IMG/VR virus record: IMGVR_UViG_2706794668_000011
Source of the DNA: a virus
Taxonomy: Duplodnaviria; Heunggongvirae; Uroviricota; Caudoviricetes
Length of the DNA stretch: 64,000 nt
Direction: 5' to 3' (one strand)
Numbering within the stretch: the stretch's first letter is position 1; every line of letters begins with the position of its first letter. Positions 7,405 through 41,037 of the stretch are shown piece after piece. The position numbers were made by a program, and so were the translations under genes. A model generated the notes under the pieces. It ran no database searches, was not told where the DNA came from, and saw only the letters and a program-made list of their open reading frames with translations.

Positions 7405-7424
7405 GGATAACAACTTGTTTAAAC
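7405..7424. promoter_or_regulatory. motif A copy (ggataacaacttgtttaaac) upstream of nrdB
   Basis: AACAA-N-TTGTT dyad 27 nt upstream of nrdB ATG; adjacent palindrome ttgtttaaacaa at 7391-7402. Confidence 0.55.
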
Positions 7425-7450
7425 ACATCAAAAAGCAAAAGGAAAAACAC

Positions 7451-8592
7451 ATGTCATATTCAACGTTCCGTTTGGGTGCTAATGATGCAACCAAAGAGCC
7501 TATGTTCCTCGGACAATNNNNNNNNNNNNNNNNNNNNNNNNNNNNNNNNNNNNNNNNNNNNNNNNNNNNNNNNNNNNNNNNNNNNNNNNNNNNNNNNNNN
7601 NNNNNNNNNNNNNNNNNNNNNNNNNNNNNNNNNNNNNNNNNNNNNNNNNNNNNNNNNNNNNNNNNNNNNNNNNNNNNNNNNNNNNNNNNNNNNNNNNNNN
7701 NNNNNNNNNNNNNNNNNNNNNNNNNNNNNNNNNNNNNNNNNNNNNNNNNNNNNNNNNNNNNNNNNNNNNNNCGTGGGTTGAAACATGGTCTTTCTCTGAG
7801 ACTATCCATAGCCGCAGCTACACCCACATTATTCGTGGCATGGTGGACGATCCGAGCATTGTTTTTGACGGTATTGTTACGGATGAAGAAATCATCAACC
7901 GAGCGATCAGTATCTCTGCTGAATATGACAGGCTTTATGGGATGACCTGCGAGCGCCAGTCGTTAGGCGAGAAGGAATTTGAGCGTCTGTACGTAAATGA
8001 ATATGGCTGGGAGCCATATCCTTTGCACCGTCAGCTTTTCCGCACGTTGGTGTCCATTAATGCGCTTGAGGCGATCCGTTTCTATGTAAGTTTTGCATGT
8101 ACGTTTGCCTTTGGCGAACGGAAGTTGCTTGAGGGTAACACCAAAATTATGCGCTTTATTGCCCGTGATGAAGCTCTGCATTGCGAAGGAACTGAACGCA
8201 TGATCCGCTTCATGCGTACCGGTCGCGAAGGTTTATTGTGGAAAGAGATTGCTGCTGATGAAGAAAACGTCATTTACGACACCATGAAATCAGTCGCCGA
8301 ACAAGAAATGAACTGGGCCGAGTATCTCTTCAAAGACGGTTCGATGATTGGTTTAAACGCGGATATTTTGAAGACCTATGTAAAATACCGCACCAATCTG
8401 GCTATGAATCGTCTTGGCCTGAAGGCTTTATTTCCAGAGGTTACCACCGATCCGCTGGTCTGGATGAACAAGTGGTTGTTAACCGACACACTGCAAATTG
8501 CACCACAAGAGGCAGAGCAAAGCACATATCTGGTAGGTCAGATCGATTCTACCGTGGACAAGGCTTCTCTAAGCCAGTTTGCAGACCTGTGA
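7451..8592 (+). CDS. nrdB: ribonucleoside-diphosphate reductase small subunit, interrupted by an assembly gap
   Basis: N-terminus MSYSTFRLGANDATKEPMFLGQ and post-gap region VETWSFSETIHSRSYTHII match E. coli NrdB as remembered; the two parts are out of frame across the N run, so the gap size is only approximate. Confidence 0.85.
7518..7771. other. assembly gap (254 N)
   Basis: run of N in the sequence. Confidence 0.99.
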
Positions 8593-8669
8593 ACCGATAC
8601 AAAGCATTATGTAACCTGGCAACGCTGGGCCACAATGGATCACAAGAATTAAGAAGGAACAAAACTAGC

Positions 8670-9539
8670 ATGAACTTTACCAAACTGACTGACCACCTGA
8701 AACTTGCCACCGATCGTCTCATTGGATTTAAGCCAGAACCATATGAGTTGCATGAAGGTCATGGTGTAGCTACTGAAAGTATTTACAAGATGGTCGATCA
8801 GTTTCATGAACTCTTCCAGCATCCGAGACGCGTTATGCCGACACCAGAGCTGCTTCGTCTCCGTGCAAGCCTGATTCATGAAGAAGCTGTAGTGGAAGGT
8901 ATTCCAGCTGCAATGAATGGGGATATTGAGCAACTGCTGGATGCAATGGCCGACTTTTTATACGTTGGTGTTGGTACGATGGTCGCCATCAAAGGTGGTA
9001 TTTCTACCGGCATGACCTATTACACGCAGGAACAGAGCATTGATCGCTTTATGCAGACAATTTTTGTGCCCGGTAACACTGTTTTCGATGATATGGCAAT
9101 GCCATTTCAGGAAGCTCGTGAGGCGTCATGTATGCTCGAAGAGCTGGCAGATAAACTTGAGAACAAGACTGTTAAGGATTCTGAGCTGATTCAGGAACTG
9201 CGCCGTGTCATGAACAAAATCTATGTGGCGTGCATGATGACCTATCGACTGGCTGATTTCCTCGGTATCAATGTAGTCGAGCTGGTTGGCGAAATTCATC
9301 GGTCTAACATGACAAAATTATGGCCTGCTGATGTAGAGGAACGTCGCCAGGCTGTGGCCAACTGCAAATACGACTCTTCAGACCTGGGATTTCGCCATGC
9401 TGATGGCACCGATAAGATGATCGGTTTTCGAATTTCCGATGGAAAGATTCTGAAGTCTCCAACCTATAGTGATGTCGATTTATCCTCCTTTGTTGAGCAA
9501 GCTAAAGCCTCAGCAATGTACGGAATGATCAAAAAATAA
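8670..9539 (+). CDS. putative all-alpha nucleotide pyrophosphohydrolase (MazG/dimeric-dUTPase-like)
   Basis: 290 aa from first ATG after nrdB with RBS aaggaa; acidic motif HEEAVVEG...DIEQLLDAMAD and later EIHRSNMTK resemble MazG-family metal-binding helices. Confidence 0.4.
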   Translation: MNFTKLTDHLKLATDRLIGFKPEPYELHEGHGVATESIYKMVDQFHELFQHPRRVMPTPELLRLRASLIHEEAVVEGIPAAMNGDIEQLLDAMADFLYVGVGTMVAIKGGISTGMTYYTQEQSIDRFMQTIFVPGNTVFDDMAMPFQEAREASCMLEELADKLENKTVKDSELIQELRRVMNKIYVACMMTYRLADFLGINVVELVGEIHRSNMTKLWPADVEERRQAVANCKYDSSDLGFRHADGTDKMIGFRISDGKILKSPTYSDVDLSSFVEQAKASAMYGMIKK

Positions 9540-9541
9540 TT

Positions 9542-9562
9542 GTAGGTGATTATCTACTAATG
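9542..9562. promoter_or_regulatory. motif B copy (gtaggtgattatctactaatg)
   Basis: Starts 3 nt after the upstream stop codon. Confidence 0.4.
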
Positions 9563-9606
9563 TATATTTGATTTGCGTATAAAACTCTGGAACGACTATT
9601 CTTTTT

Positions 9607-9630
9607 GGTGGCCTATGGCCACCATTTTTT
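9607..9630 (+). terminator. rho-independent terminator
   Basis: ggtggcc/ggccacc stem followed by atttttt. Confidence 0.8.
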
Positions 9631-9706
9631 ATCTATCTGGTCTTGTTTTATCAATGAATGTAAACTCACGTGATAAATAATTGATTACTTATCTTCGTGA
9701 GGTTTT

Positions 9707-10810
9707 ATGTCACTCCTTTTGAATCGTGAGCATACGAACGGTCAGGTAACAAACGCATCGTATGCAAAAGTTATTGAGACGGTGCTTAAAAGCGGCGTGC
9801 AGACTGATGATCGCACAGGCACTGGTACTTTAAGCACCTGCTACGTTCCCTCTTACTACATGCTTACTGGTGGGACTGTGCCGCTTATTTCTGGAAAGGC
9901 GGTAAATCTTAAGCCACTGCTTGTCGAACTTGAGTGGTATCTGAAAGGCACGGGCAACATCCAATTTCTTAAGGATAACGGCGTTAAGATTTGGGATGCA
10001 TGGGCCGATGAGAATGGCGATTTGGGGCCGGTTTACGGTAAGCAGTGGCGTCGATGGGAAGATACCCGCATCGTGAGCCATAGTGAATATCTGAGCAAGA
10101 TCGCTACTTTCCGTGAACGCGGGTACAAAGTCGAGGGATACCTGGGTATCAGTGAAGATCGCGTAGTGCTGTCCCGTGAAATCGATCAGCTACAGCGTAT
10201 TGTCGACACACTGCGCACGAACCCTACCGATCGTCGCATCATGCTTAACGCATGGAACGTAGGCGAGCTTGAGGATATGAAACTGCCACCTTGCCACTTT
10301 GTCTTCTCTTTGTGGAGTCGTGAGCTTGATTTTGAAACCCGTTTAACGATGGCAACTGACATTGGTCTTCAACACAGTCGCTTCGGTTATGAGTCTATCT
10401 ACACCAAGATGCTATACGATCTGGAGATGGACGGCAGTGTTACTGAAACTGAACTGGATGAACTTGGAATCCCCAAACGCATCCTCAACTCCTGCCTCGT
10501 ACAGCGTAGCGTAGACACTTTTGTTGGTATGCCATTCAATATTGCTGGCTATGGCATTCTCACTCATTTTCTCGCGAAGATTACGGGTCACATGGCCGGT
10601 GCATTTGTGCATTTTGGCTTTGACGTGCATTTGTACAACAACCACATGGAAGGTGTGTGTGAGCTAATGAAACGACAGGCTCCAGAGCATTCAGATCCGG
10701 TCGTTATTTTCCCTCATGAATGGTCTGAGCTGGATGATTTCAAATGGGACGATATTCTGATTCTTGGCTATGACCCTCTACCGTGGATCAAGGTTCCAGT
10801 GGCGGTGTGA
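9707..10810 (+). CDS. thyA: thymidylate synthase with two internal insertions
   Basis: 367 aa; DRTGTGT, ADENGDLGPVYGKQWR, AWNVGEL and catalytic LPPCH motifs shared with E. coli ThyA; ~40-aa and ~50-aa insertions relative to it. Confidence 0.9.
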   Translation: MSLLLNREHTNGQVTNASYAKVIETVLKSGVQTDDRTGTGTLSTCYVPSYYMLTGGTVPLISGKAVNLKPLLVELEWYLKGTGNIQFLKDNGVKIWDAWADENGDLGPVYGKQWRRWEDTRIVSHSEYLSKIATFRERGYKVEGYLGISEDRVVLSREIDQLQRIVDTLRTNPTDRRIMLNAWNVGELEDMKLPPCHFVFSLWSRELDFETRLTMATDIGLQHSRFGYESIYTKMLYDLEMDGSVTETELDELGIPKRILNSCLVQRSVDTFVGMPFNIAGYGILTHFLAKITGHMAGAFVHFGFDVHLYNNHMEGVCELMKRQAPEHSDPVVIFPHEWSELDDFKWDDILILGYDPLPWIKVPVAV

Positions 10811-10811
10811 T

Positions 10812-12342: not shown

Positions 12343-12403
12343 AAATTGTTCGCCTCTTCGACATTGCGACAATAAAACTCTCAAAATGGGTTAAGGATAA
12401 AAA

Positions 12404-17620: not shown

Positions 17621-17638
17621 AGAAAACAACTTGTTTTG
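17621..17638. promoter_or_regulatory. motif A copy (agaaaacaacttgttttg)
   Basis: Perfect AAAACAA-N-TTGTTTT dyad 23 nt upstream of ATG 17661. Confidence 0.6.
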
Positions 17639-18349: not shown

Positions 18350-18368
18350 AGAAAACAACTTGTTTAAG
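18350..18368. promoter_or_regulatory. motif A copy (agaaaacaacttgtttaag)
   Basis: 16 nt upstream of ATG 18384. Confidence 0.6.
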
Positions 18369-21759: not shown

Positions 21760-22065
21760 ATGAACAACCTCCAGTTAGAGCATTTTAACGTCACAGGCCA
21801 TTCTGATTTTCCTTTCAAGTTTACATTGAAAGGTTATGCAGAGGATGCGGTAGGCCAGATCATTATTGATAAAGGCATCGTTAAGTTTGAGGGGGATTTT
21901 GATGAATCCGCGAAAACATTCATAGACTTCATTGCCAAACGTTGGAGCGAGCAATGGAAAGACCTGGAAAAGCGCGCTAATGAGTTTGATCGGTTCATGG
22001 ATACAATGGATACAGCAAAAGAGGCTCTAGTTGCCAGACCACGGCCCGTATTTGTTCCGAATTGA
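21760..22065 (+). CDS. hypothetical protein
   Basis: 101-aa ORF. Confidence 0.5.
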   Translation: MNNLQLEHFNVTGHSDFPFKFTLKGYAEDAVGQIIIDKGIVKFEGDFDESAKTFIDFIAKRWSEQWKDLEKRANEFDRFMDTMDTAKEALVARPRPVFVPN

Positions 22066-23052: not shown

Positions 23053-23089
23053 GCATCCCTTCTCCATTAAGGCCACTAGTTGTGGCCTT

Positions 23090-23112
23090 AAACAATTTGT
23101 TTTCTACCTTTT
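23090..23112. promoter_or_regulatory. motif A copy in reverse orientation (aaacaatttgttttctacctttt); left copy of a 23-bp direct repeat
   Basis: Identical 23-mer at 27028-27050. Confidence 0.6.
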
Positions 23113-23188
23113 CTTGTTCGAGAAAATAACGTTCCTTTGTCTGGTGCTATGTACCGATCAGTTGCACTGAGTGAGCTTCTTTCATGTA

Positions 23189-23224: not shown

Positions 23225-23614
23225 ATGGGCTTCCCTTCTCCTGCGGCGGATTATGCTGAGAGCCGTATTTCTCTTGATCAGCAGATAATTAGACATCCTT
23301 CAGCGACCTACTTCATGAGAGCAGCTGATAGTCATCATCGTGAGGGAATATTACAGGGTGCATTGCTGGTGGTTGATTCCTCACTTACCCCGGTTGATGG
23401 TTCTCTGCTTGTATGCGCTCTGGATGGGGAATATCGCGTAAAAAGATACCGGAAGTCTCCACGTCAGCATCTGGAGGATTTAAGAACCGGTAAGAAGGAA
23501 GCATTGCCAAAGGATGACGATGGATGCACGGGCAGCAATGCCGTGTTTGGTGTGATCACTCACATTATCAACGACGCAAGAAGTGGCGAGTTTGATGATT
23601 GTCCTGTGATGTAG
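23225..23614 (+). CDS. UmuD'-like protein (pre-truncated UmuD homologue, HumD type)
   Basis: 129 aa beginning MGFPSPAADY, i.e. at the position of the UmuD Cys24-Gly25 self-cleavage site; shares HPSATYF and VFGVI motifs with UmuD; Ser/Lys dyad positions appear retained. Confidence 0.75.
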   Translation: MGFPSPAADYAESRISLDQQIIRHPSATYFMRAADSHHREGILQGALLVVDSSLTPVDGSLLVCALDGEYRVKRYRKSPRQHLEDLRTGKKEALPKDDDGCTGSNAVFGVITHIINDARSGEFDDCPVM

Positions 23615-24909: not shown

Positions 24910-26943
24910 ATGACCCAAGTCGCGAAGAAAATTCTGGTGACGTGCGCGCTGCCGTACGCTAACGGCTCAATCCACCTCGGCCATATGCTGGAGCACATCC
25001 AGGCTGATGTCTGGGTTCGTTACCAGCGAATGCGCGGCCACGAGGTTAATTTCATCTGTGCCGACGATGCCCACGGTACGCCAATCATGCTGAAAGCACA
25101 GCAGCTTGGTATCACACCGGAACAGATGATTGGCGAAATGAGTCAGGAACATCAGACTGATTTCGCAGGCTTTAACATCAGCTATGACAACTATCACTCG
25201 ACGCACAGCGAAGAGAACCGTCAGTTGTCCGAGCTTATCTACTCTCGCCTGAAAGAAAACGGTTTTATTAAAAACCGCACCATCTCACAGCTGTACGATC
25301 CGGAAAAATGCATGTTCCTGCCGGACCGTTTTGTAAAAGGCACCTGCCCGAAATGTAAATCCCCGGATCAATACGGCGATAACTGCGAAGTCTGCGGCGC
25401 GACCTACAGCCCGACTGAATTGATCGAGCCGAAATCGGTGGTTTCTGGCGCTACGCCGGTAATGCGTGATTCTGAACACTTCTTCTTTGATCTGCCCTCT
25501 TTCAGCGAAATGTTGCAGGCATGGACCCGCAGCGGTGCGTTGCAGGAGCAGGTGGCAAATAAAATGCAGGAGTGGTTTGAATCTGGCCTGCAACAGTGGG
25601 ATATCTCCCGCGACGCCCCTTACTTCGGTTTTGAAATTCCGAACGCGCCGGGCAAATATTTCTACGTCTGGCTGGACGCGCCGATTGGCTACATGGGTTC
25701 TTTCAAGAATCTGTGCGACAAGCGCGGCGACAGCGTAAGCTTCGACGAATACTGGAAGAAAGACTCCACCGCCGAGCTGTACCACTTCATCGGCAAAGAT
25801 ATCGTTTACTTCCACAGTCTGTTCTGGCCTGCCATGCTGGAAGGCAGCAACTTCCGCAAGCCGACCAACCTGTTTGTTCACGGCTATGTGACGGTGAACG
25901 GCGCGAAGATGTCCAAGTCTCGCGGCACCTTTATTAAAGCCAGCACCTGGCTGAATCATTTTGACGCTGACAGCCTGCGTTACTACTACACTGCGAAACT
26001 CTCTTCGCGCATTGATGATATCGATCTCAACCTGGAAGATTTCGTTCAGCGCGTGAATGCCGATATCGTGAACAAAGTGGTTAACCTGGCCTCCCGTAAT
26101 GCAGGCTTTATCAACAAGCGTTTTGACGGCGTGCTGACAAGCGAACTGGCTGACCCGCAACTGTACAAAACCTTTACTGATGCCGCTGAAGTGATTGGCG
26201 AAGCATGGGAAAGCCGCGAATTTGGTAAAGCTATCCGTGAAATCATGGCATTGGCTGACCTGGCTAATCGCTATGTCGATGAACAGGCTCCGTGGGTGGT
26301 GGCGAAGCAGGAAGGTCGCGATGCAGATCTGCAGGCGATTTGCTCTATGGGCATTAACCTGTTCCGCGTGCTGATGACGTACCTGAAACCGGTACTGCCG
26401 AAACTGACTGAACGTGCAGAAGCATTCCTGAATACAGAACTGACCTGGGATGGTATCCAGCAACCGCTTCTGGGCCATAAAGTGAATCCGTTCAAGGCAC
26501 TGTATAACCGTATCGATATGAAACAGGTGGAAGCACTGGTGGAAGCATCCAAAGAAGAAGTGAAAGCCACAGCTGCACCGGTAACTGGCCCACTGGCTGA
26601 CGAACCGATTCAGGAAACCATCACCTTTGACGACTTCGCCAAAGTTGACCTGCGTGTGGCGCTGATTGAAAACGCGGAGTTTGTCGAAGGTTCTGACAAA
26701 CTGCTTCGCCTGACGCTGGATCTCGGTGGTGAAAAGCGTAATGTCTTCTCAGGCATCCGTTCCGCTTATCCAGATCCACAGGCACTGATTGGTCGTCACA
26801 CCATTATGGTGGCTAACCTGGCACCACGTAAAATGCGCTTCGGTATCTCTGAAGGCATGGTGATGGCTGCCGGTCCTGGCGGGAAAGATATCTTCCTGTT
26901 AAGCCCGGATGCTGGTGCTAAACCTGGCCACCAGGTTAAGTAA
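24910..26943 (+). CDS. metG: methionyl-tRNA synthetase, host-type
   Basis: 677 aa from [10 protein letters not shown]; HLGH and KMSKS motifs, zinc knuckle CPKCK...CEVCG, C-terminal tRNA-binding domain; near-identical to E. coli MetG as remembered. The track ORF starting at 24781 is an upstream in-frame extension. Confidence 0.95.
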
Positions 26944-26963
26944 TTAAACAACCTCTCTTCGCA

Positions 26964-26990
26964 ATGCCCGGCAACACGCCGGGCATTTTC
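26964..26990 (+). terminator. rho-independent terminator downstream of metG
   Basis: atgcccggc/gccgggcat stem followed by ttt. Confidence 0.7.
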
Positions 26991-27027
26991 ATATAGACAC
27001 AATCCCTCCTGATTTACACAAGCCCTA

Positions 27028-27050
27028 AAACAATTTGTTTTCTACCTTTT
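27028..27050. promoter_or_regulatory. motif A copy in reverse orientation; right copy of the 23-bp direct repeat
   Basis: aaacaatttgttttctacctttt identical to 23090-23112. Confidence 0.6.
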
Positions 27051-27074
27051 GTTGATTGAGATAATAAGCCACAT

Positions 27075-27094
27075 AAGAAAACAACTTGTTTTGG
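27075..27094. promoter_or_regulatory. motif A copy (aagaaaacaacttgttttgg)
   Basis: 11 nt upstream of ATG 27105. Confidence 0.6.
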
Positions 27095-27104
27095 AGTAGT
27101 TGAA

Positions 27105-27404
27105 ATGTTGAACATTACCCAAGCCTACCAGGTGGCATTGATCAGTTCATCTCATACATCAGAGGAAGATGCTCGCCGATTCATGATCGCAAGCAATGAG
27201 CTGGATTGGGTTTCACAAATTGAGTACGGTTGCATTGTCCACGCCGGGTTACAGGACGATGACTGGAAAGATGAGTTGCGTCGATATGGTATATCCGAGG
27301 GTGCGATTGCGAACATTCAGAAAGTACTTGATGTAGGCTTTAACTCTGTACATTTTGATTGTGGCGCACCGGTCGTTGAAGGGCTTGAGTGCTGGCAATG
27401 GTAA
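27105..27404 (+). CDS. hypothetical protein
   Basis: 99-aa ORF with RBS ggag. Confidence 0.5.
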   Translation: MLNITQAYQVALISSSHTSEEDARRFMIASNELDWVSQIEYGCIVHAGLQDDDWKDELRRYGISEGAIANIQKVLDVGFNSVHFDCGAPVVEGLECWQW

Positions 27405-27440
27405 TCCGGCAATCGCTTCATACTAGATAACGGAGAATTT

Positions 27441-27626
27441 ATGCTTAAAGAAGACTCATATCTACTAAAGGCGCTTGAAATGAGTGGCGTTGAACCTACA
27501 GTGAAAAACGCTCACGATATCTACCTTCAGTTTTCGACAGAGCTGAAACAGCTCATAAATAAATATGGAGTGAACGACTCCAGCGTCAAAGCCATGATAG
27601 ATGATGAATTAGACCATCTCATCTAA
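27441..27626 (+). CDS. hypothetical small protein
   Basis: 61-aa ORF with RBS cggag. Confidence 0.4.
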   Translation: MLKEDSYLLKALEMSGVEPTVKNAHDIYLQFSTELKQLINKYGVNDSSVKAMIDDELDHLI

Positions 27627-27749
27627 TCAAACCGTTGATAATGGCGGTCACAATTTGATTCTTTTCTATAAGAACCCGTTGATCGCCACTACTACCCTCC
27701 CATACCAGCAATCACATCATTAAATATCAATAGGTTATGGTTGTTTATA

Positions 27750-28500
27750 CCAATAAGAAAACAACTAAATAACAGATCAACGAAACATCAACGCTTTCTC
27801 CCGATTTGGTCTAAAAAATTGACGTTATCACACATCACTTCTTATACCCGTAATTCTACGCAGCAGATAGCGCCACAGCGTCCAAATTTCACCACAGACG
27901 ACTCAACACACTACCAACAAAAACACACGCTCAAAATCGCTCCCGTTGCGTTACACAACCATATAAACAACTTATTTTCAGGCATAACAAAACAACCAAA
28001 TAACACATATGCCATTACCCAAAACAACCAACCTCTTTATGGCAGGCTACCGAAAAGACCCACCTCTTCTCCCCAGGCTACCGGACAACCAACCTAACTT
28101 TCACAGGCAATCCGAAAACATTCATACGCGCGATACCCACGACACGCCATTACCCAAACAGCGAAGAAACACCTGAACCGCTGAAACCCTAACGAAGCCT
28201 GTAACCGCAAGGTTTCTCTCAATCCCAAAAGACACGAAACATAACAATCACGGGAAACGCCATTACCCAATACACGAATAACTACAAAAGCCTTCACACA
28301 CTCCAGACAAACAACTCAAACACAATAACGAAAGCAATCGCCCACCTGCCATTACTCCATACACGGAGAAGAACAATCACCAAAACGACGAGAACACCCC
28401 CATAGAAGAACCACCGCAAAACTAACGAAACCACATACACCGACAGAGAAAACAACACACCCAATTCACCAACAGAAATAGTCGCCGTATAGAACATTCT
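27750..28500 (+). repeat. ~750-bp AC-rich, G/T-poor low-complexity tract with dispersed short repeats; probably non-coding
   Basis: Strong strand compositional skew; gccattacccaa-type repeat at 28011, 28146, 28259 and 28349; aggctaccg-type repeat at about 28041, 28074 and 28104; ORFs here look like compositional artefacts. Confidence 0.6.
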
Positions 28501-28682
28501 GGAAGGAGTGAGCATTAACGCCTATAGAGAGGTTGAGACAGATAAAACACAACATGTATAGCGAAGAAGCCAGGTATGTATAAGTGGAGAGGGAAGGAGG
28601 GGGGTCGCCTCCTTTTTCGTATTTATTCAACTCCTGATTTTATCCCCCGTAACACCCCCTACGGTCAGCCTTCGGTCCATAC

Positions 28683-28821
28683 AGGGAAAAGGTTGCATCC
28701 AGCTACAGAAACGGCTGGGTTGCCTTCGGGGGAACGGCTGGGGATTTTCAGGGAAACGGTCGAGTTGCCTGTGTGGATTTCGGGAAAAGGCTCGATGCCG
28801 GTTCTGGAACGGCGGCGTACC
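28683..28821. repeat. iteron-like tandem array (six ~20-bp repeats at ~22-23-bp spacing)
   Basis: agggaaaaggttgcatcc / cagaaacggctgggttgcc / cgggggaacggctggggat / agggaaacggtcgagttgcc / cgggaaaaggctcgatgcc / ctggaacggcggcgtacc. Confidence 0.7.
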
Positions 28822-29193
28822 GGTATAGCGAGAGAGAGTTGCAGCTACCCACCTGTAATGTGCGGGAAGAAGAGAGGCGCTCACGTGCAGGCTGACTTGC
28901 TTACCGCTGGATTCCCTCTGAATGCCAGATACAGCGTAATTGTGCCAGACAGCCAGCGGGTCACAATCGATTTCAGTAGGTTTTCGGGGAGAGGATTATT
29001 CTACCCACCAGCCCCGCGGCGCGCGTAGAGCAGAATATCGTAAATACTGGCTCTCGTGTCGTTCCCGGATATTCACTGCCCAGCCTGGCTTTCCCGACAT
29101 AAAATCCTTTTTCGCCTTTATCTTATTGCGATAATAACACCAACAAGTAAACAGCATATTTAGACGTTATAGAAACGAAGTGAGGATGAAGAG

Positions 29194-29412
29194 ATGATTA
29201 AGATGCCTGTGACGGTTGAGGTGTGGGGCGTGGATTCCCTGGCTGAGTGTCTGGATGCAGTGGGGCCGGAGTTGTACCGCAAGTTGTGGTCGTTCGTCCC
29301 GGCAGAAGGGGAATCGCCCAAAGGGAAGGATATCTGGCACCTGCTGAGTGAAGATGAAAAGCGGGAGCTGGTGGGCGCGGTACACAGCGAGTTCCCGGAC
29401 GACCAAGATTAA
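29194..29412 (+). CDS. hypothetical small protein
   Basis: 72-aa ORF with RBS gagga. Confidence 0.45.
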   Translation: MIKMPVTVEVWGVDSLAECLDAVGPELYRKLWSFVPAEGESPKGKDIWHLLSEDEKRELVGAVHSEFPDDQD

Positions 29413-29482
29413 GAGTGAGGCCACCAGCACGGTGGCTTTTGTCGCTATTAACCTCGGGGCAGCGCAGCACCGTAACGATATA

Positions 29483-29542
29483 CTTTGTGGCCGTTTTCTT
29501 ACTGGTATTGTTTACGTAATTCAGAAAACAACATGTTTAAGG
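29483..29542 (+). promoter_or_regulatory. promoter-operator cassette, copy 1 (putative -35 ttgtgg, -10 tattgt, then motif A)
   Basis: ~60-bp direct repeat of 29968-30027 (~85 percent identical); motif A cagaaaacaacatgtttaa at 29522-29540. Confidence 0.55.
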
Positions 29543-29550
29543 ATTGCTTT

Positions 29551-29880
29551 ATGTTTGCAAATATCGACATCAACCAAATTAAGAAATTGACTCAAAAAGA
29601 GTTTGACCAGTTTTATGAGCTGGAAGGTTGGTCTTCCACTCTGATTAATTCAAGATGGGTGCTGGAGCTGATGACTCGTGATGACGCACCTGCTTTGATG
29701 ATTTGCGACATGGGTGAAGATGCTGACTTTATGGATATGAGCGAATTTTGTGTGGACACATACAACCGCAGCCAGAAGTACTACTTCACATGCGATAGCG
29801 AAAATGACGTGATTTCTAAGGTCTATCTTCACCTCGTCCAGCATTGGGACGTTCAGGACTTCCTTGCGATATTCGCGTAA
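29551..29880 (+). CDS. hypothetical protein
   Basis: 109 aa from ATG preceded by aagga. Confidence 0.5.
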   Translation: MFANIDINQIKKLTQKEFDQFYELEGWSSTLINSRWVLELMTRDDAPALMICDMGEDADFMDMSEFCVDTYNRSQKYYFTCDSENDVISKVYLHLVQHWDVQDFLAIFA

Positions 29881-29967
29881 GCCCAACCAAAGCCAGCATT
29901 GCTGGCTTAACTTCATCTGTAGCCGCAGGGAAGAACCTGCATATCGCTCATGCGCCTGATCAATATG

Positions 29968-30027
29968 CTTTGTAGCCGTTTTCTTACTGGTATTATTTAC
30001 GCCATTGAGAAAACAAGTTGTTTACGG
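29968..30027 (+). promoter_or_regulatory. promoter-operator cassette, copy 2 (putative -35 ttgtag, -10 tattat, then motif A)
   Basis: Direct repeat of 29483-29542; motif A gagaaaacaagttgtttac at 30008-30026. Confidence 0.55.
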
Positions 30028-30034
30028 AGTTGTG

Positions 30035-30346
30035 ATGAAAAAATCATTGGTTCTTGGTCTGGACAAAGACCAGAAGAGAAAAGAGAAGCCTGCACTGGTT
30101 GCTCAATTAACTTTGCTGGACATCGTTGCCAATGGAACCTCTATTCGTCTGTTCCGTGAAACAGCGGTGTCTTTCGATAAAAACACCTTTACTCGTTATG
30201 TAATGAATGTTCGTCGCCAGCGTGGAAAAGGCTGGATGGCATTTCAAAGAATGTGGCCGGAACATCAGCTCGAACTGGCTTTGATGGAAGTTAACCGCGT
30301 GGCCCAGCAAGAGATTCAGAGAGCATCAGTGATGGCAATAGCCTGA
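30035..30346 (+). CDS. hypothetical protein
   Basis: 103 aa from ATG preceded by ggag. Confidence 0.5.
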   Translation: MKKSLVLGLDKDQKRKEKPALVAQLTLLDIVANGTSIRLFRETAVSFDKNTFTRYVMNVRRQRGKGWMAFQRMWPEHQLELALMEVNRVAQQEIQRASVMAIA

Positions 30347-30471
30347 TAATGTGCAAGTGGTAATTAGTCGACAGTACGACAGCCCCGCCATCCTTACGGG
30401 GTTTTTTGTATTGTAAGTACATACCTATGTCTATAAAATAGAAAAATAACCAAGACACTATGGAGAGTGAT

Positions 30472-30867
30472 ATGAGCGTTAAACGAGAAAACCTGACAGT
30501 TGATGTCTACTATGCTTCAGAAAGCGCCGAAGGTAAGAATGTAGCTAAAATCACCGTCGTTACGTACAACACCGAAACTGGAACTGAAGTTCAGGCAAGT
30601 ACTATTGTGCGTAAAGGAGATACATCAGGCGGGGAATATGAGGCGCAATATCAGTCCATTTTTGATGCAACGGACCCGTTGTTGTTGAAAATTGAAAGTT
30701 ACTTCCGTAAGGTGAATAAAGAGGTGTTTGAAACCATGATGAATATGGTTAACACCGTATTCGCTTCCAGTCTGAACACTAACACTACCTGGATTGGTCA
30801 GTATGGTCTGCGCATTACCTCCGGCATTCCTGCTGACACCTTAATCCCTGAAAGCGTATTCGCTTAA
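30472..30867 (+). CDS. hypothetical protein
   Basis: 131 aa from ATG preceded by ggagag. Confidence 0.5.
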   Translation: MSVKRENLTVDVYYASESAEGKNVAKITVVTYNTETGTEVQASTIVRKGDTSGGEYEAQYQSIFDATDPLLLKIESYFRKVNKEVFETMMNMVNTVFASSLNTNTTWIGQYGLRITSGIPADTLIPESVFA

Positions 30868-30876
30868 TCCTCTTTG

Positions 30877-30905
30877 AATGGCGCGTAAACCGCGCCATTT
30901 TCTTA
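30877..30905 (+). terminator. rho-independent terminator
   Basis: aatggcgcg/cgcgccatt stem followed by ttcttatg. Confidence 0.7.
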
Positions 30906-30911
30906 TGCCCG

Positions 30912-30931
30912 ATAACAATTTGTTTTCTGCC
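30912..30931. promoter_or_regulatory. motif A copy in reverse orientation (ataacaatttgttttctgcc)
   Basis: 55 nt upstream of ATG 30986. Confidence 0.55.
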
Positions 30932-30985
30932 TTATCTGATTTGTGAAAATGCTTTCACTGAAAGCAACTTGATAAGGAAACCATC

Positions 30986-31360
30986 ATGGGACTTGATATC
31001 TACATTGAGACGCAACCAAAAAACGATCTGAATAACGATGCATCCAGAAAGAAGGTTGCTTACTTCCGTAAGTTCAATGCTCTCTTTGGGTGGATGGAAC
31101 GCAACGTAGGTGAAGTCAAAAATTGTGAGCTTTTAGAATTAACGATGAATGACATTTGTGCTCTGAAAGCTCATTTGATGCACATGAACGAAAGTAACTG
31201 CGAAGAGTACTTACCTACCTGTGAAGGTTTTTTCTTCGGCAGTCAGGAGTACGATGAAGGGTACTGGCATGACGTGGGGGAGTTGAAAAAACTTGTGGAA
31301 GAGCTGATTAAGAACCACGACTTTCACAATAACAGACTGACCTTCTGCGCCTGGTGGTAA
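30986..31360 (+). CDS. hypothetical protein
   Basis: 124-aa ORF with RBS aagga. Confidence 0.5.
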   Translation: MGLDIYIETQPKNDLNNDASRKKVAYFRKFNALFGWMERNVGEVKNCELLELTMNDICALKAHLMHMNESNCEEYLPTCEGFFFGSQEYDEGYWHDVGELKKLVEELIKNHDFHNNRLTFCAWW

Positions 31361-31362
31361 AT

Positions 31363-31506
31363 ATGGGCGATTTCAAGAAACGCCTGAAGGAAAGAGCCGA
31401 GATAGTCAGAAAGCAAAACGCCTCTTCTGTCATCAGATACGCAAGGCAGTTTAGTCGCAACAACAAATCAGTTGAGGAAAAGATCCTTAGCGTAATCGGT
31501 CGATAA
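31363..31506 (+). CDS. small basic protein (47 aa), not in ORF track
   Basis: ATG 2 nt after upstream stop; Arg/Lys-rich; followed by a strong hairpin at 31512-31536. Confidence 0.3.
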   Translation: MGDFKKRLKERAEIVRKQNASSVIRYARQFSRNNKSVEEKILSVIGR

Positions 31507-31554
31507 TTATTAAGGCCACCACTGCTGGTGGCCTTAAATGACCATCCTGTTTCC

Positions 31555-31633
31555 CGCAGGCTAAAAACACCAACCTCTTACCTCCAGGCAACCGACAAAC
31601 CCACCTGTTCCCGTCCGGCTACCGCAACTTTCC
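31555..31633. repeat. second iteron-like family (aggc-t/a-accg-type units, ~30-bp spacing)
   Basis: aggctaaaaacacc / aggcaaccgacaaac / cggctaccgcaactt; same family as repeats at about 28041-28120. Confidence 0.55.
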
Positions 31634-31672
31634 ACTTTGACGCCTTATTCGTACAACGATAATTAACGCCAA

Positions 31673-31693
31673 CAAGAAAACAATTTGTTATTT
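31673..31693. promoter_or_regulatory. motif A copy (caagaaaacaatttgttattt)
   Basis: 18 nt upstream of ATG 31711. Confidence 0.55.
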
Positions 31694-31710
31694 ACGATAA
31701 GGAATTAATC

Positions 31711-32193
31711 ATGAATTTTATCGCTACTGTAAACGCACCCGCACATGGCAATATCGCTGTAACGTTCTCTGACATTGAAAAACGAGTACTTGGTGCATGG
31801 CGCGACAATGAGACGGTAGAACTGTCAGCACAAGAAAAATGCATTATTGCACGCGACATCATTGGCAATCGTCGTTACTCGCGGGTATTTGAGAAAGCGT
31901 ATGTGGTAAATTCTGGATTCGGAACGTTCGTCTTTCCGGTGCGCTCCGGGCGATTCTGCCAGTCCAAGCTGATTGAGTTCGCTACGCAGATTTCTGTCTG
32001 GATTAAAACTCAATCGTCGTTCAAATTTTCCGACGATGAAGCAGTATCGCAGGGGATGCGGATCGCCAACAATGCAATTAAATGCAAAAACATTACGTAT
32101 ACCGCTGGCGTTGATACATGGAAACTGTTTTGCGCTAACTTTATGCTGAATGTATACGCAAGCAACCGCATCCACATCCTTGATGGTGTGTAA
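31711..32193 (+). CDS. hypothetical protein
   Basis: 160-aa ORF with RBS aagga. Confidence 0.5.
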   Translation: MNFIATVNAPAHGNIAVTFSDIEKRVLGAWRDNETVELSAQEKCIIARDIIGNRRYSRVFEKAYVVNSGFGTFVFPVRSGRFCQSKLIEFATQISVWIKTQSSFKFSDDEAVSQGMRIANNAIKCKNITYTAGVDTWKLFCANFMLNVYASNRIHILDGV

Positions 32194-32202
32194 CTGAGAA
32201 GA

Positions 32203-32225
32203 GGGCCAGTAACGGCCCTTTCTCT
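32203..32225 (+). terminator. rho-independent terminator
   Basis: gggcc/ggccc stem followed by tttctct. Confidence 0.6.
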
Positions 32226-32242
32226 ATAGCCACCAGATGCCG

Positions 32243-32329
32243 CAGGGAAATTTTCAGAAACGGCGAGGAACGTATTCATGAACCGACGGGGAACGGCCAG
32301 GATTTTTTCGGGAAACGGCTGCATTCGCC
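32243..32329. repeat. second array of the gggaaacgg-type iteron family
   Basis: cagggaaattttc / cagaaacggcgaggaacg / cggggaacggccaggatt / cgggaaacggctgcattcgcc; homologous to units at 28683-28821. Confidence 0.65.
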
Positions 32330-34260: not shown

Positions 34261-34782
34261 TTAAAACGGAAGGATTCGTTCAACCCAATCGAAGAAAATA
34301 AGTATTTTTCTACCGTCTTCCAACTTAAGTGTGACTAGACAGGCGTCAACGCCATCTGACGTTCCCTCAATTTCGCGACCGTCTGCCATGTAGACCCTTA
34401 TAGATTTGCCGTTTTGGTAAGCCTGACGACATATCTTAAAAAAGTCACGACGTGATGGCTGATTAACCATCTGTTCATTGTTTAGCGTTAGTCGACCTGT
34501 GAATGAAGTGTCAACCTCTTCTATGCCCGACTCAATTGTGCTAATGCGCTCAAGAGGGAGCCTTATACGATTTGTGTTGCTAAGCGGATCTGGTGTGAGG
34601 TTCAGCTTATTTCTTGCGCTCAATAGCCCGTAGACATACATGCAAAACACTTGGCCGTCTTCGAGAGTGACTCTTACAGGAAATTTTGCACTCCGCCAGA
34701 AGAGCAAGGTACGTTCAGCATGTTCGTAGTCTCGCGGCCATACTTCAGCCGGTATGCCGTAGGTGATGTCCAATGTTCTCAT
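34261..34782 (-). CDS. hypothetical protein
   Basis: 173-aa ORF; 4-nt overlap with upstream gene suggests co-translation. Confidence 0.5.
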   Translation of the reverse strand: MRTLDITYGIPAEVWPRDYEHAERTLLFWRSAKFPVRVTLEDGQVFCMYVYGLLSARNKLNLTPDPLSNTNRIRLPLERISTIESGIEEVDTSFTGRLTLNNEQMVNQPSRRDFFKICRQAYQNGKSIRVYMADGREIEGTSDGVDACLVTLKLEDGRKILIFFDWVERILPF

Positions 34783-35553: not shown

Positions 35554-35832
35554 TTACGGCAGTTTGCTTAGAATTTGCTCTAAATCTTCCTTTGTCATAT
35601 TAGAGTTCTCATAGATGCGCATGATTTTCTCACGAGCCTTAGCAGAGACTCCAACGGCAGATGAAACTTTGTCAAATTCAGCCATCGTCATCGTCTCCAG
35701 AATGGTATTGATAACTTCAGCCTTAGACATTTTGATGTTTTTTTCTTTTAGTTTCATTTGAAACTTTCCAAGTTTGTCATTGGCCTTATCGGACAATGCC
35801 ACCTGACAATAAGTTGTTTTCTTTTCGCTCAT
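35554..35832 (-). CDS. hypothetical protein
   Basis: 92-aa ORF starting 3 nt after the helicase stop. Confidence 0.45.
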   Translation of the reverse strand: MSEKKTTYCQVALSDKANDKLGKFQMKLKEKNIKMSKAEVINTILETMTMAEFDKVSSAVGVSAKAREKIMRIYENSNMTKEDLEQILSKLP

Positions 35833-35834
35833 AA

Positions 35835-37394: not shown

Positions 37395-37435
37395 AAACCT
37401 CTTTCCTTAGTGCCTTTTGTATGTTATTTGGCTAT

Positions 37436-37462
37436 TATAATAAGTAAGTGATTACTTAGTGG
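37436..37462. promoter_or_regulatory. motif B variant (tataataagtaagtgattacttagtgg) in divergent promoter region
   Basis: taagta/tactta inverted repeat between helicase and ParB-like gene starts. Confidence 0.4.
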
Positions 37463-37476
37463 ATTGTAGCAATAAA

Positions 37477-38157: not shown

Positions 38158-38825
38158 TGACCAAAAAGTTTGAAATCGTATATCGCGACCCGGCAGATCT
38201 TATTCCCTATGAGATGAATGCCAAAAAGCATGATGAACAGCAGATCAGAGATCTGGCCGCAGCCATTAAAAAGCGCGGATTTGACCAGCCAATTACGGTC
38301 GATAAGAACGACGTAATTATTACTGGCCACGGCCGTCGTGAGGCTGCAATTTTTGCTGGACTTGAGCGTGTACCGGTTATTGTTCGCGATGATCTCAGTG
38401 ATGACGAGGTTCGTGCGAAGCGCCTTGAAGATAACCGACTTGCCAGCATTGATTACGATGCAATTAAGCTACAGAAAGAGCTTGAGTCGCTTGTTCTGGA
38501 CGATATCGAGGTTTTCGGCTTCGAAGAGCGTGAGTTGAATGTTCTCGTTGGCAGTATGACAGAAGAAATGGACACCGACTCGCTAGTTATCGATCTTGGC
38601 GAAGAAACTAAACGACAGAAGGATGAACACACCGAGATCAGTCGTGAAGTTGCAGCGGAAGAAGTACGTGTTGTCGACGTATTGGGCTTTAAAACGCTTC
38701 CTGCTGGCTCTGCCATTGTTGTTGGTGATTTGCTTGCCCACATGGAAGAAATGACGGGAGAAAGCGGGGTAGACGCATTTGTGGCATATGCGGAGAAAAT
38801 CTCTTCCGGGGAGATGGCTGCATGA
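38157..38825 (+). CDS. ParB/Srx-fold protein 2 (tandem paralogue)
   Basis: ParB-type motif ITGHGRREAA; RBS aaggag; ATG overlaps upstream stop. Confidence 0.65.
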   Translation: MTKKFEIVYRDPADLIPYEMNAKKHDEQQIRDLAAAIKKRGFDQPITVDKNDVIITGHGRREAAIFAGLERVPVIVRDDLSDDEVRAKRLEDNRLASIDYDAIKLQKELESLVLDDIEVFGFEERELNVLVGSMTEEMDTDSLVIDLGEETKRQKDEHTEISREVAAEEVRVVDVLGFKTLPAGSAIVVGDLLAHMEEMTGESGVDAFVAYAEKISSGEMAA

Positions 38826-39460
38826 GCAAATACATCATCAACGTATCGTTTCAGACACGCGTAAATAAAACCACGCGCACGTTGGAAATCGCTGAGTCGT
38901 TCGGGCTTGGCCTGGACGAAAAAGAGTGGACGCTTTACGACAATCTGGAGCTGGAAGTGAAGCAGGGCGATGTGGTGTACATCACCGGCCAATCCGGTTC
39001 CGGCAAATCCGTTGTGCTGCGCGAGTTGCAACGACAGATGAAGGATGAAGGGCTGTCTGTAGCCTCCATCGATGATTTTACCTTCGATAATGAGGTTAAC
39101 GTCATCGATCAGTTGGGCAAAACGACCAGTGATGCGCTTGGGTTGTTATCTATGGCTGGTCTGAACGATGCATATCTGTTTGTTCGCAAGCCTTCTGAAA
39201 TGTCAGACGGCCAGAAATATCGTCTCAAGATTGCCAAACTGATTGAGTCAGGCGCTAAAGTATGGGCTGCTGACGAGTTCGGCGCTGTTCTAGACCGTGT
39301 AACCGCTCAGGTTGTGGCGTCTAACCTCCAGCGTGCCGCTCGAAAGGTTGGTGCGACGGTAATGGTGGCGACGACTCACGAAGACCTGAAGAACGCGCTG
39401 CGCCCGGATATGCAGATCACCAAGCACTACAAAGAACGCGTGAAGGTGGAATATGCCTGA
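38822..39460 (+). CDS. ABC-type ATPase (nucleotide-binding-domain fold only)
   Basis: 212 aa; Walker A GQSGSGKS, signature-like SDGQKYR, Walker B VWAADEFG, H-loop TTHED; overlaps upstream stop. Confidence 0.6.
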   Translation: MSKYIINVSFQTRVNKTTRTLEIAESFGLGLDEKEWTLYDNLELEVKQGDVVYITGQSGSGKSVVLRELQRQMKDEGLSVASIDDFTFDNEVNVIDQLGKTTSDALGLLSMAGLNDAYLFVRKPSEMSDGQKYRLKIAKLIESGAKVWAADEFGAVLDRVTAQVVASNLQRAARKVGATVMVATTHEDLKNALRPDMQITKHYKERVKVEYA

Positions 39461-39707
39461 TTTGAAGATCGTAGAGCTGAAGCCATCGAAAGAGACTGAT
39501 AACAACAACGTGGAAGTCATCCGCCTGCTGGAAGAAGCACTTCAGCACGCCAGAGAAGGAAAAAGCCAGAGCCTGGCGCTGTTGATGATCAACAACGACG
39601 GCAGTGTTCTTGATTGCTGGCATAACGGCGGGCGCCCGTATGTCATGGTAGGGGCGATGGAGTCTCTTCGCCTGGATTTCATCAATGCCAATATCGAGCG
39701 CAGGTGA
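39453..39707 (+). CDS. hypothetical small protein
   Basis: 84-aa ORF overlapping upstream stop. Confidence 0.45.
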   Translation: MPDLKIVELKPSKETDNNNVEVIRLLEEALQHAREGKSQSLALLMINNDGSVLDCWHNGGRPYVMVGAMESLRLDFINANIERR

Positions 39708-39712
39708 TCGAC

Positions 39713-40603
39713 ATGGCAGATATCATCATCAAACGCTACCGCCCTGAAGAGTTTCCGCGTCATCTGGACTTTCTGGAGCGAATGACTGTCACAAAGGGAA
39801 CTGTAGAGGACTGGCACGCTCTTAAGTCGCTTCACTACAAAACAGACGGCAAACCTTTCGCGCCAACTTACTATCGCTGCGAACTTGATGACCGTCTGGT
39901 GGGCGTCGTGGTTATGGCTTACCCGAAACTACTGTTGGCACCTCGCCACCGCATGTTTCCTAAGTTGAAACCAACCACTAATACCACCGTAGCTAACCAG
40001 TACTGGGGTCGGTACGTGAATAACAACTTTGCGGTGATCAGTCGCTCAGTTGTGGATACTCAGTATCGTGGCGTAGGCGTCTCTTATCGAATGATTAACC
40101 TGGTTAGCAGGATGCATGACCGGCCAATCATTGAGATCCAGTCCTCGATGAGCAAATACAATCCCTTCGCCATGAAAGCAGGGTTTAAGTTCATCCGCCC
40201 TGAGCGACCGAAGAGCTATGAAAGTGCACTGCGTGTATTCCAGCGCCATTTCCGTTCCGACCCTGGTGATAACGAGGCGATCGTCAAAGAGTTGTTCGCA
40301 ATGAGCGAGTCTCGTCGTCGCCGTGCACTGCGTGATCTGGTGGCGGACTACCACAAGAACAGTTCCCTGGCAAAAGCTGGGCGGAATCGTGGCACGACGA
40401 TTCAGGACATTGCCGACAGTCTGGTGGACGAGGCCAGCATTGTGAAGCTGCTCAAGGACATTCACAACCTGAGCTTTACGTCTCCGTTGTATGGTGTGTA
40501 CCGAAACCCTGACTTTGGTCGTCGACTGCCTGACACGCTGCCACTGCTGGCATTCGACAAACAACCTTTGGATAAACCGTTAGAAATTGCTTTACCGGCA
40601 TAA
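39713..40603 (+). CDS. GNAT-like acyltransferase-fold protein with C-terminal extension
   Basis: 296 aa from ATG after aggtga; QYRGVGVSYRMI resembles the GNAT acyl-CoA-binding motif. Confidence 0.45.
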   Translation: MADIIIKRYRPEEFPRHLDFLERMTVTKGTVEDWHALKSLHYKTDGKPFAPTYYRCELDDRLVGVVVMAYPKLLLAPRHRMFPKLKPTTNTTVANQYWGRYVNNNFAVISRSVVDTQYRGVGVSYRMINLVSRMHDRPIIEIQSSMSKYNPFAMKAGFKFIRPERPKSYESALRVFQRHFRSDPGDNEAIVKELFAMSESRRRRALRDLVADYHKNSSLAKAGRNRGTTIQDIADSLVDEASIVKLLKDIHNLSFTSPLYGVYRNPDFGRRLPDTLPLLAFDKQPLDKPLEIALPA

Positions 40604-40612
40604 GGATTTGCC

Positions 40613-40879
40613 ATGACGTTAACCGACAAACAAAAGGACATCATCAAAACGCTCAATCTCGGTTATGAGCGAGGTCATCTACTTGATCTGGACGAATTGC
40701 TTGAAGTTTTGCCGTACAAGACAACCAAGCAAAGCATCCAGTTCTCAATTCGCGCTCTGATAAAAAAGGGGCTGGTGGAGAAAGGACATACGCGCCAACG
40801 CAGTGACAATCGCTATCACCGCCGGACTCTTGGGTTAACCACTTTAGGTCGAGCCAAAGCGAAGTTACTGGTGATGTAA
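40613..40879 (+). CDS. small winged-helix-like DNA-binding protein
   Basis: 88 aa, RBS aagga; basic C-terminal half; helix-turn-helix character inferred only. Confidence 0.4.
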   Translation: MTLTDKQKDIIKTLNLGYERGHLLDLDELLEVLPYKTTKQSIQFSIRALIKKGLVEKGHTRQRSDNRYHRRTLGLTTLGRAKAKLLVM

Positions 40880-40903
40880 TCGGTCTGGGAGCTTATTTAA
40901 AGA

Positions 40904-40959
40904 CCTGCTTCTGTATATATAAATAATAAGTAACTTATTAAATATATACAGAAGCAGGC
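40904..40959. repeat. long palindromic element, copy 2 (perfect 17-bp arms cctgcttctgtatatat)
   Basis: Perfect inverted repeat around a 22-nt AT-rich loop; same arm sequence as 15168-15228; sits between the wHTH gene and terS. Confidence 0.7.
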
Positions 40960-40993
40960 TTAGTAAGACATGCCCAGACCTAATTAAACACCC

Positions 40994-41010
40994 CAGAAAA
41001 CAAGTTGGTT
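40994..41010. promoter_or_regulatory. motif A copy (cagaaaacaagttggtt)
   Basis: First of two copies upstream of terS. Confidence 0.5.
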
Positions 41011-41021
41011 AGCATATGCAG

Positions 41022-41037
41022 TAAACAAGTTGTTTTA
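41022..41037. promoter_or_regulatory. motif A copy (taaacaagttgtttta)
   Basis: 39 nt upstream of terS ATG. Confidence 0.55.

Follow-up and report, generated by a model that had tools for sequence, protein, structure and literature searches.

What does one short palindrome do at so many promoters of a phage genome? The question is raised by a 64,000-nt stretch of Caudoviricetes DNA (IMG/VR record IMGVR_UViG_2706794668_000011; 'the window' always means this whole stretch), in which the initial annotation noticed the sequence AAAACAA-N-TTGTTTT, here called motif A, ahead of many genes and proposed it as the genome-wide operator set of a master repressor, by analogy with the C1 operators of phage P1. 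The window is 99.98% identical to the Shigella sonnei plasmid p1538007_2 (CP104415.1, 107,358 bp), from which it differs in lacking a 4.9-kb segment of the plasmid and in having a masked run of N at 7518-7771. Its near relatives are the Escherichia phages CMS-2020a, PhiR41_1 and Cyrano, with Salmonella phage SSU5 more remote. The identity to CP104415.1 and the phage relatives together mark the window, as judged by its sequence, as an SSU5-like phage-plasmid. The partition gene of this family is found in about 800 plasmid records (Klebsiella, Escherichia, Enterobacter, Salmonella and others), and the family takes in S. Typhi plasmids and much of Yersinia pestis pMT1. Phage-plasmids have been described as carriers of resistance genes (PMC9600943, PMC12217456). 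We propose, as a moderately probable reading, that motif A is the shared operator of a putative global repressor that would keep phage genes silent in the plasmid state. The literature that we searched contained no description of motif A or of plasmid/lysis control of the SSU5 type.

Motif A is a 15-base near-palindrome that occurs much more often than composition predicts. Using AAAACAANTTGTTTT as the query, the window holds 3 perfect matches (0.00 expected), 9 matches with at most one mismatch (0.03 expected) and 14 with at most two (0.68 expected), and with a weight matrix built from 41 sites the window has 14 scoring at least 14 bits, where 0.14 would be expected. Twelve positions carry 1.3-1.8 bits of information and the centre is free; the spacer is exactly one base, and a version with a three-base spacer has no match in the window. 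The window thus has 22 sites per 100 kb, about 180 times the 0.12 per 100 kb of a sample of enterobacterial chromosome, 816 kb of which gave a single weak matrix match. The complete element CP104415.1 has 20 sites at two mismatches or fewer, and 18 of these are intergenic although only 13% of the DNA is. All twelve copies listed in the initial annotation are present, at distances from start codons much as claimed (measured at 10-121 nt), and we add three: 27964-27978, 35806-35820 and a degenerate copy at 30961-30975.

The copies fall into two arrangements. The majority, which we call downstream-type, read AG-AAAACAA-n-TTGTTT-A and start about 12 nt past a -10-like element that is often extended (TGaGATAAT, TGgTATTAT, TGcGATAAT; TGnGATAAT type), and upstream of this element there is often a terminator-like hairpin with the T run of the preceding gene. 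We compared 75 non-redundant contexts from five genomes: in 19 of them the site follows a TGn-extended -10-like nonamer (TGn[G/T/A]Annn[A/T]T) at 11-13 nt, and in 20 it follows a -10-like hexamer at 12-13 nt; other copies have weaker -10-like boxes. The distance from copy to ATG spans tens of nucleotides (10-34 nt for the clear downstream-type copies). Given a fixed distance to the -10 element and a variable one to the ATG, it is the promoter, rather than the ribosome-binding site, to which the palindrome is tied. Were transcription to start some 7 nt past the -10 element, a downstream-type site would cover approximately +6 to +20, with its centre near +13.

Upstream-type copies are the exact inversion of this sequence, AG flank included (TAAACAA-n-TTGTTTT-CT), and end 18 nt before the -10 hexamer, which would put their centre near -38 and their extent at about -45 to -31. 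In the window they are the copies at 23089, 27027 and 30912; among 74 sites, 13 are of this inverted type and lie outside any inferred leader. Where an upstream and a downstream copy occur at one promoter they are 51 bp apart, and pairs at 25 bp stand before terS and, in Klebsiella, before nrdB; over five genomes paired copies stand only at these two distances, and no other pair spacing below 200 bp was found in the plasmid, SSU5, pJN2-26 or Cyrano. The pairing reported by the initial annotation is borne out, with the terS copies 25 bp apart and those at 27027 and 27078 separated by 51 bp. Its view that copies lie in either orientation needs qualification: upstream copies are indeed inverted relative to downstream ones, but the site is not orientation-free, given that the AG flank, one-sided in 57 of the 74 sites, is always turned toward the -10 element. 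No conserved -35 is recognisable at motif A promoters. On this pattern we think it rather probable that they are host-type sigma-70 promoters, about 20 in number, with a -10 that is often extended by TGn. The individual copies in the window are:

7407-7421, + strand: downstream-type motif A, ATAACAACTTGTTTA; 18.5 bits; 29 nt from the nrdB start (7451).
17623-17637, + strand: perfect downstream-type motif A; 24.4 bits; ATG 17661 (TerB/TciA-like gene) 23 nt on.
18352-18366, + strand: downstream-type motif A; 25.7 bits; ATG 18384 17 nt on.
23089-23103, - strand: inverted upstream-type motif A, TAAACAATTTGTTTT-CT; 26.4 bits; a hairpin immediately before.
27027-27041, - strand: perfect upstream-type motif A; 18 nt before TGaGATAAT (-10 hexamer 27060-27065).
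27078-27092, + strand: perfect downstream-type motif A; 12 nt past GATAAT; ATG 27105 12 nt on.
27964-27978, + strand: motif A, TAAACAACTTATTTT; 18.1 bits; ATG 28009 30 nt on; kept in Cyrano.
29525-29539, + strand: downstream-type motif A; 23.1 bits; past TGgTATTGT; ATG 29551 11 nt on.
30010-30024, + strand: downstream-type motif A; 27.3 bits; past TGgTATTAT; ATG 30035 10 nt on.
30912-30926, - strand: upstream-type motif A; 25.4 bits; 18 nt before TGtGAAAAT (-10 hexamer 30945-30950).
30961-30975, + strand: degenerate downstream partner of the preceding copy, AAAGCAACTTGATAA, with 4 mismatches; before ATG 30986.
31677-31691, + strand: downstream-type motif A; 20.8 bits; past cGATAAT; ATG 31711 19 nt on.
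35806-35820, no strand assigned: motif match in codons 4-9 of a 92-aa open reading frame; set apart from the system.
40997-41011, + strand: first terS copy of motif A, AAAACAAGTTGGTTA; 25 bp from the second copy.
41022-41036, - strand: second terS copy of motif A, TAAACAAGTTGTTTT; next to it a leader hairpin and T run (41037-41065); terS ATG at 41076.

The copy at 23089-23103 ends 18 nt before a -10-like GAAAAT (23122-23127) and has no downstream partner; the next gene, at 23225, encodes an S24 peptidase. An intrinsic-terminator-like hairpin with a T run precedes the copy at 30912-30926. The match at 35806 decays by synonymous changes in close relatives and is gone in the Salmonella and Klebsiella lineages, and is probably a chance occurrence; as an autoregulatory site of the 92-aa gene it was rejected, being unconserved and explained by the codons. 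Beside the first copy, the 254 N at 7518-7771 hide part of nrdB, and it is this masking that makes the nrdB reading frame look broken.

The arrangement is kept across the family. SSU5 has 21 motif A sites with the same sequence and layout, Cyrano has the motif with matching layout, the Klebsiella phage-plasmid pJN2-26 has 16 sites in 50 kb, and the divergent Klebsiella plasmid pKSB1_7G.2 has 15 sites in 50 kb, plus those at parA and the helicase gene. In Y. pestis pMT1 there are 7 sites at shared promoters, including the terS pair and one 51-bp pair, so that control sites of the phage ancestor would persist in this plasmid. At single loci, the nrdB copy is kept in SSU5, Cyrano and pJN2-26 and doubled at 25 bp in the last; the 51-bp pair of 27027 and 27078 is also found in SSU5, pJN2-26, Cyrano and pMT1; and SSU5 and pJN2-26 have a good copy at the position matching the degenerate one at 30961-30975. 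Upstream of terS, 17 distinct relatives keep both palindromes while the 10 nt between them differ freely, and some relatives have one copy fewer, by an exact 25-bp unit. The Pectobacterium plasmid Drgb1, a distant SSU5-like element, has no motif A network in the 40 kb examined; the variant AAATAAnTTATTT is not enriched there and the covariation test is uninformative. Viral contigs scanned for the motif had, unless they were SSU5-like, no more than single or chance matches in AT-rich DNA. Drgb1 promoters carry other palindromes, for example TATGTA-n-TACATA, and this plasmid encodes its own Hfq directly before the replicative helicase.

The two halves of motif A are exact complements of each other, and therefore either the duplex is read by a symmetric protein or the transcript forms a hairpin. 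A hairpin with a one-base loop is impossible and was ruled out, and the best alternative RNA fold reaches only 0 to -1.8 kcal/mol, with z near 0 against shuffles. Across 93 distinct cores there are 132 one-sided deviations that break pairing versus 8 double Watson-Crick changes, and no Rfam family matches in the window. A hairpin, a terminator or another structured RNA was accordingly rejected on energy, covariation and Rfam. Because the deviations are one-sided, the hairpin is unstable and the upstream copies lie outside the leader, we favour recognition of double-stranded DNA over that of a folded structure. Motif A in this respect looks like a generic operator of a dimeric repressor, a dyad whose halves are conserved independently.

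Expression in a lysogen can be set beside these sites, since RNA sequencing of E. coli LF82 carrying Cyrano has been published (supplementary file 2, PMC9928086). Against a background of 9.8 normalised counts in that dataset, the motif A-linked genes terS (7.1), CYRAN_101 (7.5), cobT (7.8), the TciA-like gene (7.0) and CYRAN_87 (7.1) are at background, and so are nrdB (12.9), CYRAN_105/106 (about 12.5) and the helicase (21), which also lie behind the motif (PMC9928086). Promoters that have a near-consensus extended -10 and yet are silent in the plasmid state fit direct repression.

The best explanation that we can offer is that one element-encoded regulator, acting as a dimer or pseudo-dimer, would bind AG-AAAACAA-n-TTGTTT-A (about 17 bp). 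Bound at approximately +6 to +20, it would prevent the open complex from forming or the polymerase from leaving the promoter; at some promoters a second, inverted site at about -45 to -31 would be occupied where -35 contacts form, and in the 51-bp pairs (about five helical turns) the bound units would touch across the promoter and probably cooperate. Replication, nucleotide-metabolism and small early genes, together with the terS late operon, would thereby be off during plasmid replication. In this scheme we infer the transcription starts, the mode of repression and the involvement of a single protein.

Several observations weigh against such a repressor. A perfectly symmetric dimer leaves the asymmetry of the site, with AG on one side in most copies, unexplained. 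A generic -35/-10 scan of 26900-32300 placed no promoter at the sites and gave fewer matches than shuffles, so the -10-like elements have to carry the promoter assignment by themselves. The ParA operon described below has a downstream-type copy, yet it is expressed at 50-89 in the Cyrano lysogen (PMC9928086), and silence in the lysogen fits activator-requiring promoters equally well. No covariation links any candidate protein to motif A, as the motif is invariant, and every candidate regulator has some counter-evidence. The genome-wide repressor operator set proposed by the initial annotation nevertheless stays the favoured reading, given a dispersed promoter-linked dyad that is kept family-wide, occupies positions typical of repressor sites and is accompanied by silence in the lysogen; the site itself is asymmetric.

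Beside the copy at 23089, the S24 peptidase gene (23225-23614, + strand) encodes a LexA/UmuD-like C-terminal domain without a DNA-binding domain. With 148 counts it ranks with the most strongly expressed of the conserved genes in the Cyrano lysogen (PMC9928086), and it may link induction to DNA damage.

Candidate readers of motif A are encoded at four places in the element:

40613-40879, + strand: winged helix-turn-helix (wHTH)-like protein, 88 aa, just upstream of the terS sites; weak match to LexA_DNA_bind (E value 0.07).
34261-34782, - strand: FljA-family protein, 173 aa, annotated 'transcriptional regulator'; full-length match to PF03614 (E value 1.4e-68).
35554-35832, - strand: 92-aa protein with a ribbon-helix-helix-like N-terminus, judged by sequence pattern; after the UvsW-like helicase.
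CP104415.1 99143-99496, about 5 kb beyond the window: ParA-linked small protein with a ribbon-helix-helix pattern.

The wHTH protein, which the initial annotation had suggested as the regulator, is 78-89% identical in pKSB1_7G.2 and pMT1 but makes a poor lysogenic repressor, with 7.8 counts against a background of 9.8 and its whole operon at background. The 92-aa protein is the best-expressed conserved small protein in the Cyrano lysogen (114; PMC9928086). Its comparison with CopG and Mnt by hhalign is not significant, its AlphaFold2 (AF2) model is of low confidence (predicted local distance difference test score, pLDDT, 57), its putative DNA-reading strand differs between lineages, and its gene lies behind a promoter with another palindrome (motif B, see below). 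A CI-like helix-turn-helix (HTH) protein encoded next to the integrase gene, outside the window, was rejected: its own control region has no motif A, and the integrase-repressor module is lacking at the matching position in SSU5, yet 21 sites are found there. Homologues of the FljA-like (69% identical), 92-aa (62%), wHTH (89%) and CI-like HTH (63%) proteins are present in pMT1, in which the small ParA module is replaced by a ParB-family system.

Almost all genes of the window lie on the + strand, and what chiefly departs from this is a conserved block at 32.8-37.4 kb that runs opposite to the lytic genes and contains the UvsW-like helicase, the 92-aa protein, the FljA-family protein and others. 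The FljA-like gene belongs to the core set of SSU5-like phage-plasmids from at least seven genera, and its product is modelled as two tandem Sm/Hfq-like domains after a disordered, highly conserved N-terminal peptide, ITYGIPAEVWPRDY. In the Cyrano lysogen it is expressed at 18 counts overnight and at log2 7-8 in growing cells (PMC9928086). That the FljA-family protein reads motif A, whether as duplex DNA through a two-domain pseudo-dyad, as leader RNA or as both, is possible but doubtful; the pseudo-dyad would explain the slight asymmetry of the site. If it were true, the master switch between lysis and lysogeny in SSU5-like phage-plasmids would belong to a family of flagellar phase-variation regulators, and Salmonella would have domesticated a phage repressor as its FljA. 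The only role known for FljA to date is to repress a single flagellin mRNA.

The same protein could instead act on leader RNA, blocking translation and speeding mRNA decay, which we regard as unlikely. It would suit the position of most copies, between the inferred start and the Shine-Dalgarno sequence at 10-34 nt from the ATG, as well as the strand-specific AG flank and the expression of the FljA-like protein in lysogens (PMC9928086). The fliC leader of Salmonella and Citrobacter moreover holds ACATCAAGTTGTAAT, with the core CAAGTTGT in common, but this likeness amounts to 1 bit (about 0.03-0.04 chance per leader) and is not found in the E. coli leader, and to our knowledge the taxa that conserve it are generally without fljA. 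An RNA operator also gives no role to the upstream-type copies, which precede the promoter or directly follow terminators, with a constant spacing of 51 bp, and it has to reconcile exactly complementary halves with an unstable hairpin and no compensatory change. The FljA-like protein of pKSB1_7G.2 is down to 38-39% identity and has lost the N-terminal VWPRDY, which is invariant elsewhere, yet motif A is unchanged there. A different reader would be the ribbon-helix-helix-like protein of the partition module (CP104415.1 98469-99496), in which a 222-aa ParA (matching MipZ/CbiA/ParA) is followed by this small basic-tailed protein; it would bind motif A as two inverted heptads and repress all motif A promoters including its own. 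A downstream-type copy does lie at the promoter of its operon in four lineages, its expression in the lysogen is intermediate, as for an autoregulated gene (PMC9928086), and its identity of at least 95% in 735 of 797 plasmids from six genera, far above the rest of the element, parallels the invariance of the motif. The 55%-identical version in pKSB1 keeps the putative beta-strand IKSRTMS and the helix start TRSDVIRAA, and a relative gives a weak match to RHH_1 (E value 0.019). We nevertheless hold this assignment to be quite unlikely, because pMT1 has 7 sites but no homologue of the protein or its ParA, a Drgb1 homologue with a nearly identical putative reading strand goes with no network in the 40 kb examined, and the fold is unestablished, with neither the hhalign comparison with ParG nor the PDB profile search significant.

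Both remaining explanations turn the argument away from an element-encoded repressor. Motif A might be an activator site or core element that turns promoters without a -35 on in lytic growth, for example through the wHTH protein, which the ParB-like operon encodes and whose gene lies directly before terS; some phages encode late activators in just that place. Several -10 elements are poor, such as those of terS and cobT, the upstream copy shares with class II activator sites an overlap with the -35 region, and the wHTH gene and its proposed targets are both silent in the lysogen (PMC9928086). Against this, roughly three in four copies are located past the -10 element at approximately +13, a position from which activators rarely work, and many of the promoters have a near-consensus extended -10 that should need no activation, which leaves activation improbable in our judgement. 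Binding by a conserved Enterobacterales host protein would account for a motif that does not change between elements of Escherichia, Shigella, Salmonella, Klebsiella and Yersinia, while over the same range identity drops to 38% for the FljA-like protein and 33% for the 92-aa protein. However, the 816 kb of enterobacterial chromosome with its one weak match, and the distant Pectobacterium relative without the network, speak against it, and we know of no E. coli transcription factor with the motif A consensus; a host reader is very unlikely.

With a repressor encoded by the element as the favoured reading, the closest published parallels can be compared. The analogy with P1 C1 drawn by the initial annotation applies to the logic of the network, a plasmid prophage with a genome of about 100 kb and one short sequence at many scattered promoters, through which one repressor silences many lytic operons, but not to membership. 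P1 C1 operators are asymmetric 17-mers, ATTGCTCTAATAAATTT, read by the large C1 protein, whereas motif A is a 15-bp near-palindrome of other sequence. The annotations of CP104415.1, Cyrano and SSU5 list no C1 homologue; no search was aimed at C1. The operator of the KorB/KorA regulon of the IncP plasmid RK2 resembles motif A in being a palindrome with an unpaired central base, repeated about a dozen times at promoters around the replicon; one RK2 site class lies just upstream of the -35, near the -38 copies of motif A, and KorB is a partition protein, while the SSU5-like element has two ParB_N-domain genes. The RK2 operator is TTTAGCSGCTAAA. It differs from motif A in sequence, and motif A lies mostly downstream of the -10 element and not upstream or at a distance. 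The two ParB_N genes are silent in the Cyrano lysogen (PMC9928086).

Omega of pSM19035 and ParG of TP228 are ribbon-helix-helix partition proteins that double as repressors. Like the pairs of 7-bp heptads, direct or inverted, that omega recognises at several promoters, motif A can be read as two inverted heptads, and the element has a small ParA followed by a small protein with a ribbon-helix-helix-like pattern, the promoter of their operon carrying the motif. Omega arrays, however, comprise 7-10 heptads at three promoters, motif A consists of single pairs at about 20 promoters, and pMT1 keeps motif A without the ParA-linked protein. FljA and T4 RegA act on mRNA leaders, where most motif A copies would be; T4 RegA acts on many early mRNAs. 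The known target of FljA is a single host mRNA (fliC), and the upstream copies and the strict dyad of motif A favour DNA. The motif A network is not a member of the P1 C1, KorA/KorB or omega systems, because its sequence differs and the proteins that define them are absent, silent or unproven.

One site of 15 bp, shared by about 20 promoters, would define the regulon and could serve as bait for the repressor. Motif A would also predict the promoters that fire on induction, and the compact repressible promoter-terminator cassettes might be usable in engineering.

Such cassettes also frame one difference between the window and its plasmid counterpart. The extra 4.9 kb of CP104415.1 sits between two homologous cassettes of hairpin, motif A and promoter (CP104415.1 47656 and 52776), which correspond to a junction at 22024-22035 in the window; repeated cassettes of this kind seem to be recombination points at which accessory genes are shuffled.

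Another palindrome, motif B (TAAGTA-N2-6-TACTTA), occurs twice without mismatch in the window, where 0 copies are expected: once at 37441-37458 in the divergent helicase/ParB-like promoter region and once at 49060-49073 before a tail gene at 49124. More than 10 copies stand at promoters of pKSB1_7G.2, and the related GGTAAG-TG-CTTACC adjoins the CI-like HTH gene. Motif B is probably the operator set of another regulator.

The terS leader contains, at 41037-41065, a conserved hairpin (AGAGCGC-atggac-GCGCTCT, -13.8 kcal/mol) followed by GTGTGTTTT, after the motif A pair and ahead of the ribosome-binding site of terS. The element resembles a terminator, and the late operon may need antitermination to be expressed. 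Further upstream of terS, a 26-nt sequence, ACTTATTAAATATATAC(A/G)GAAGCAGG, at 40933-40958 is conserved in relatives and recurs at about 100736-100788 of CP104415.1 in the form of a palindrome whose arms are 26 bp long; it could serve in packaging, partition or replication.

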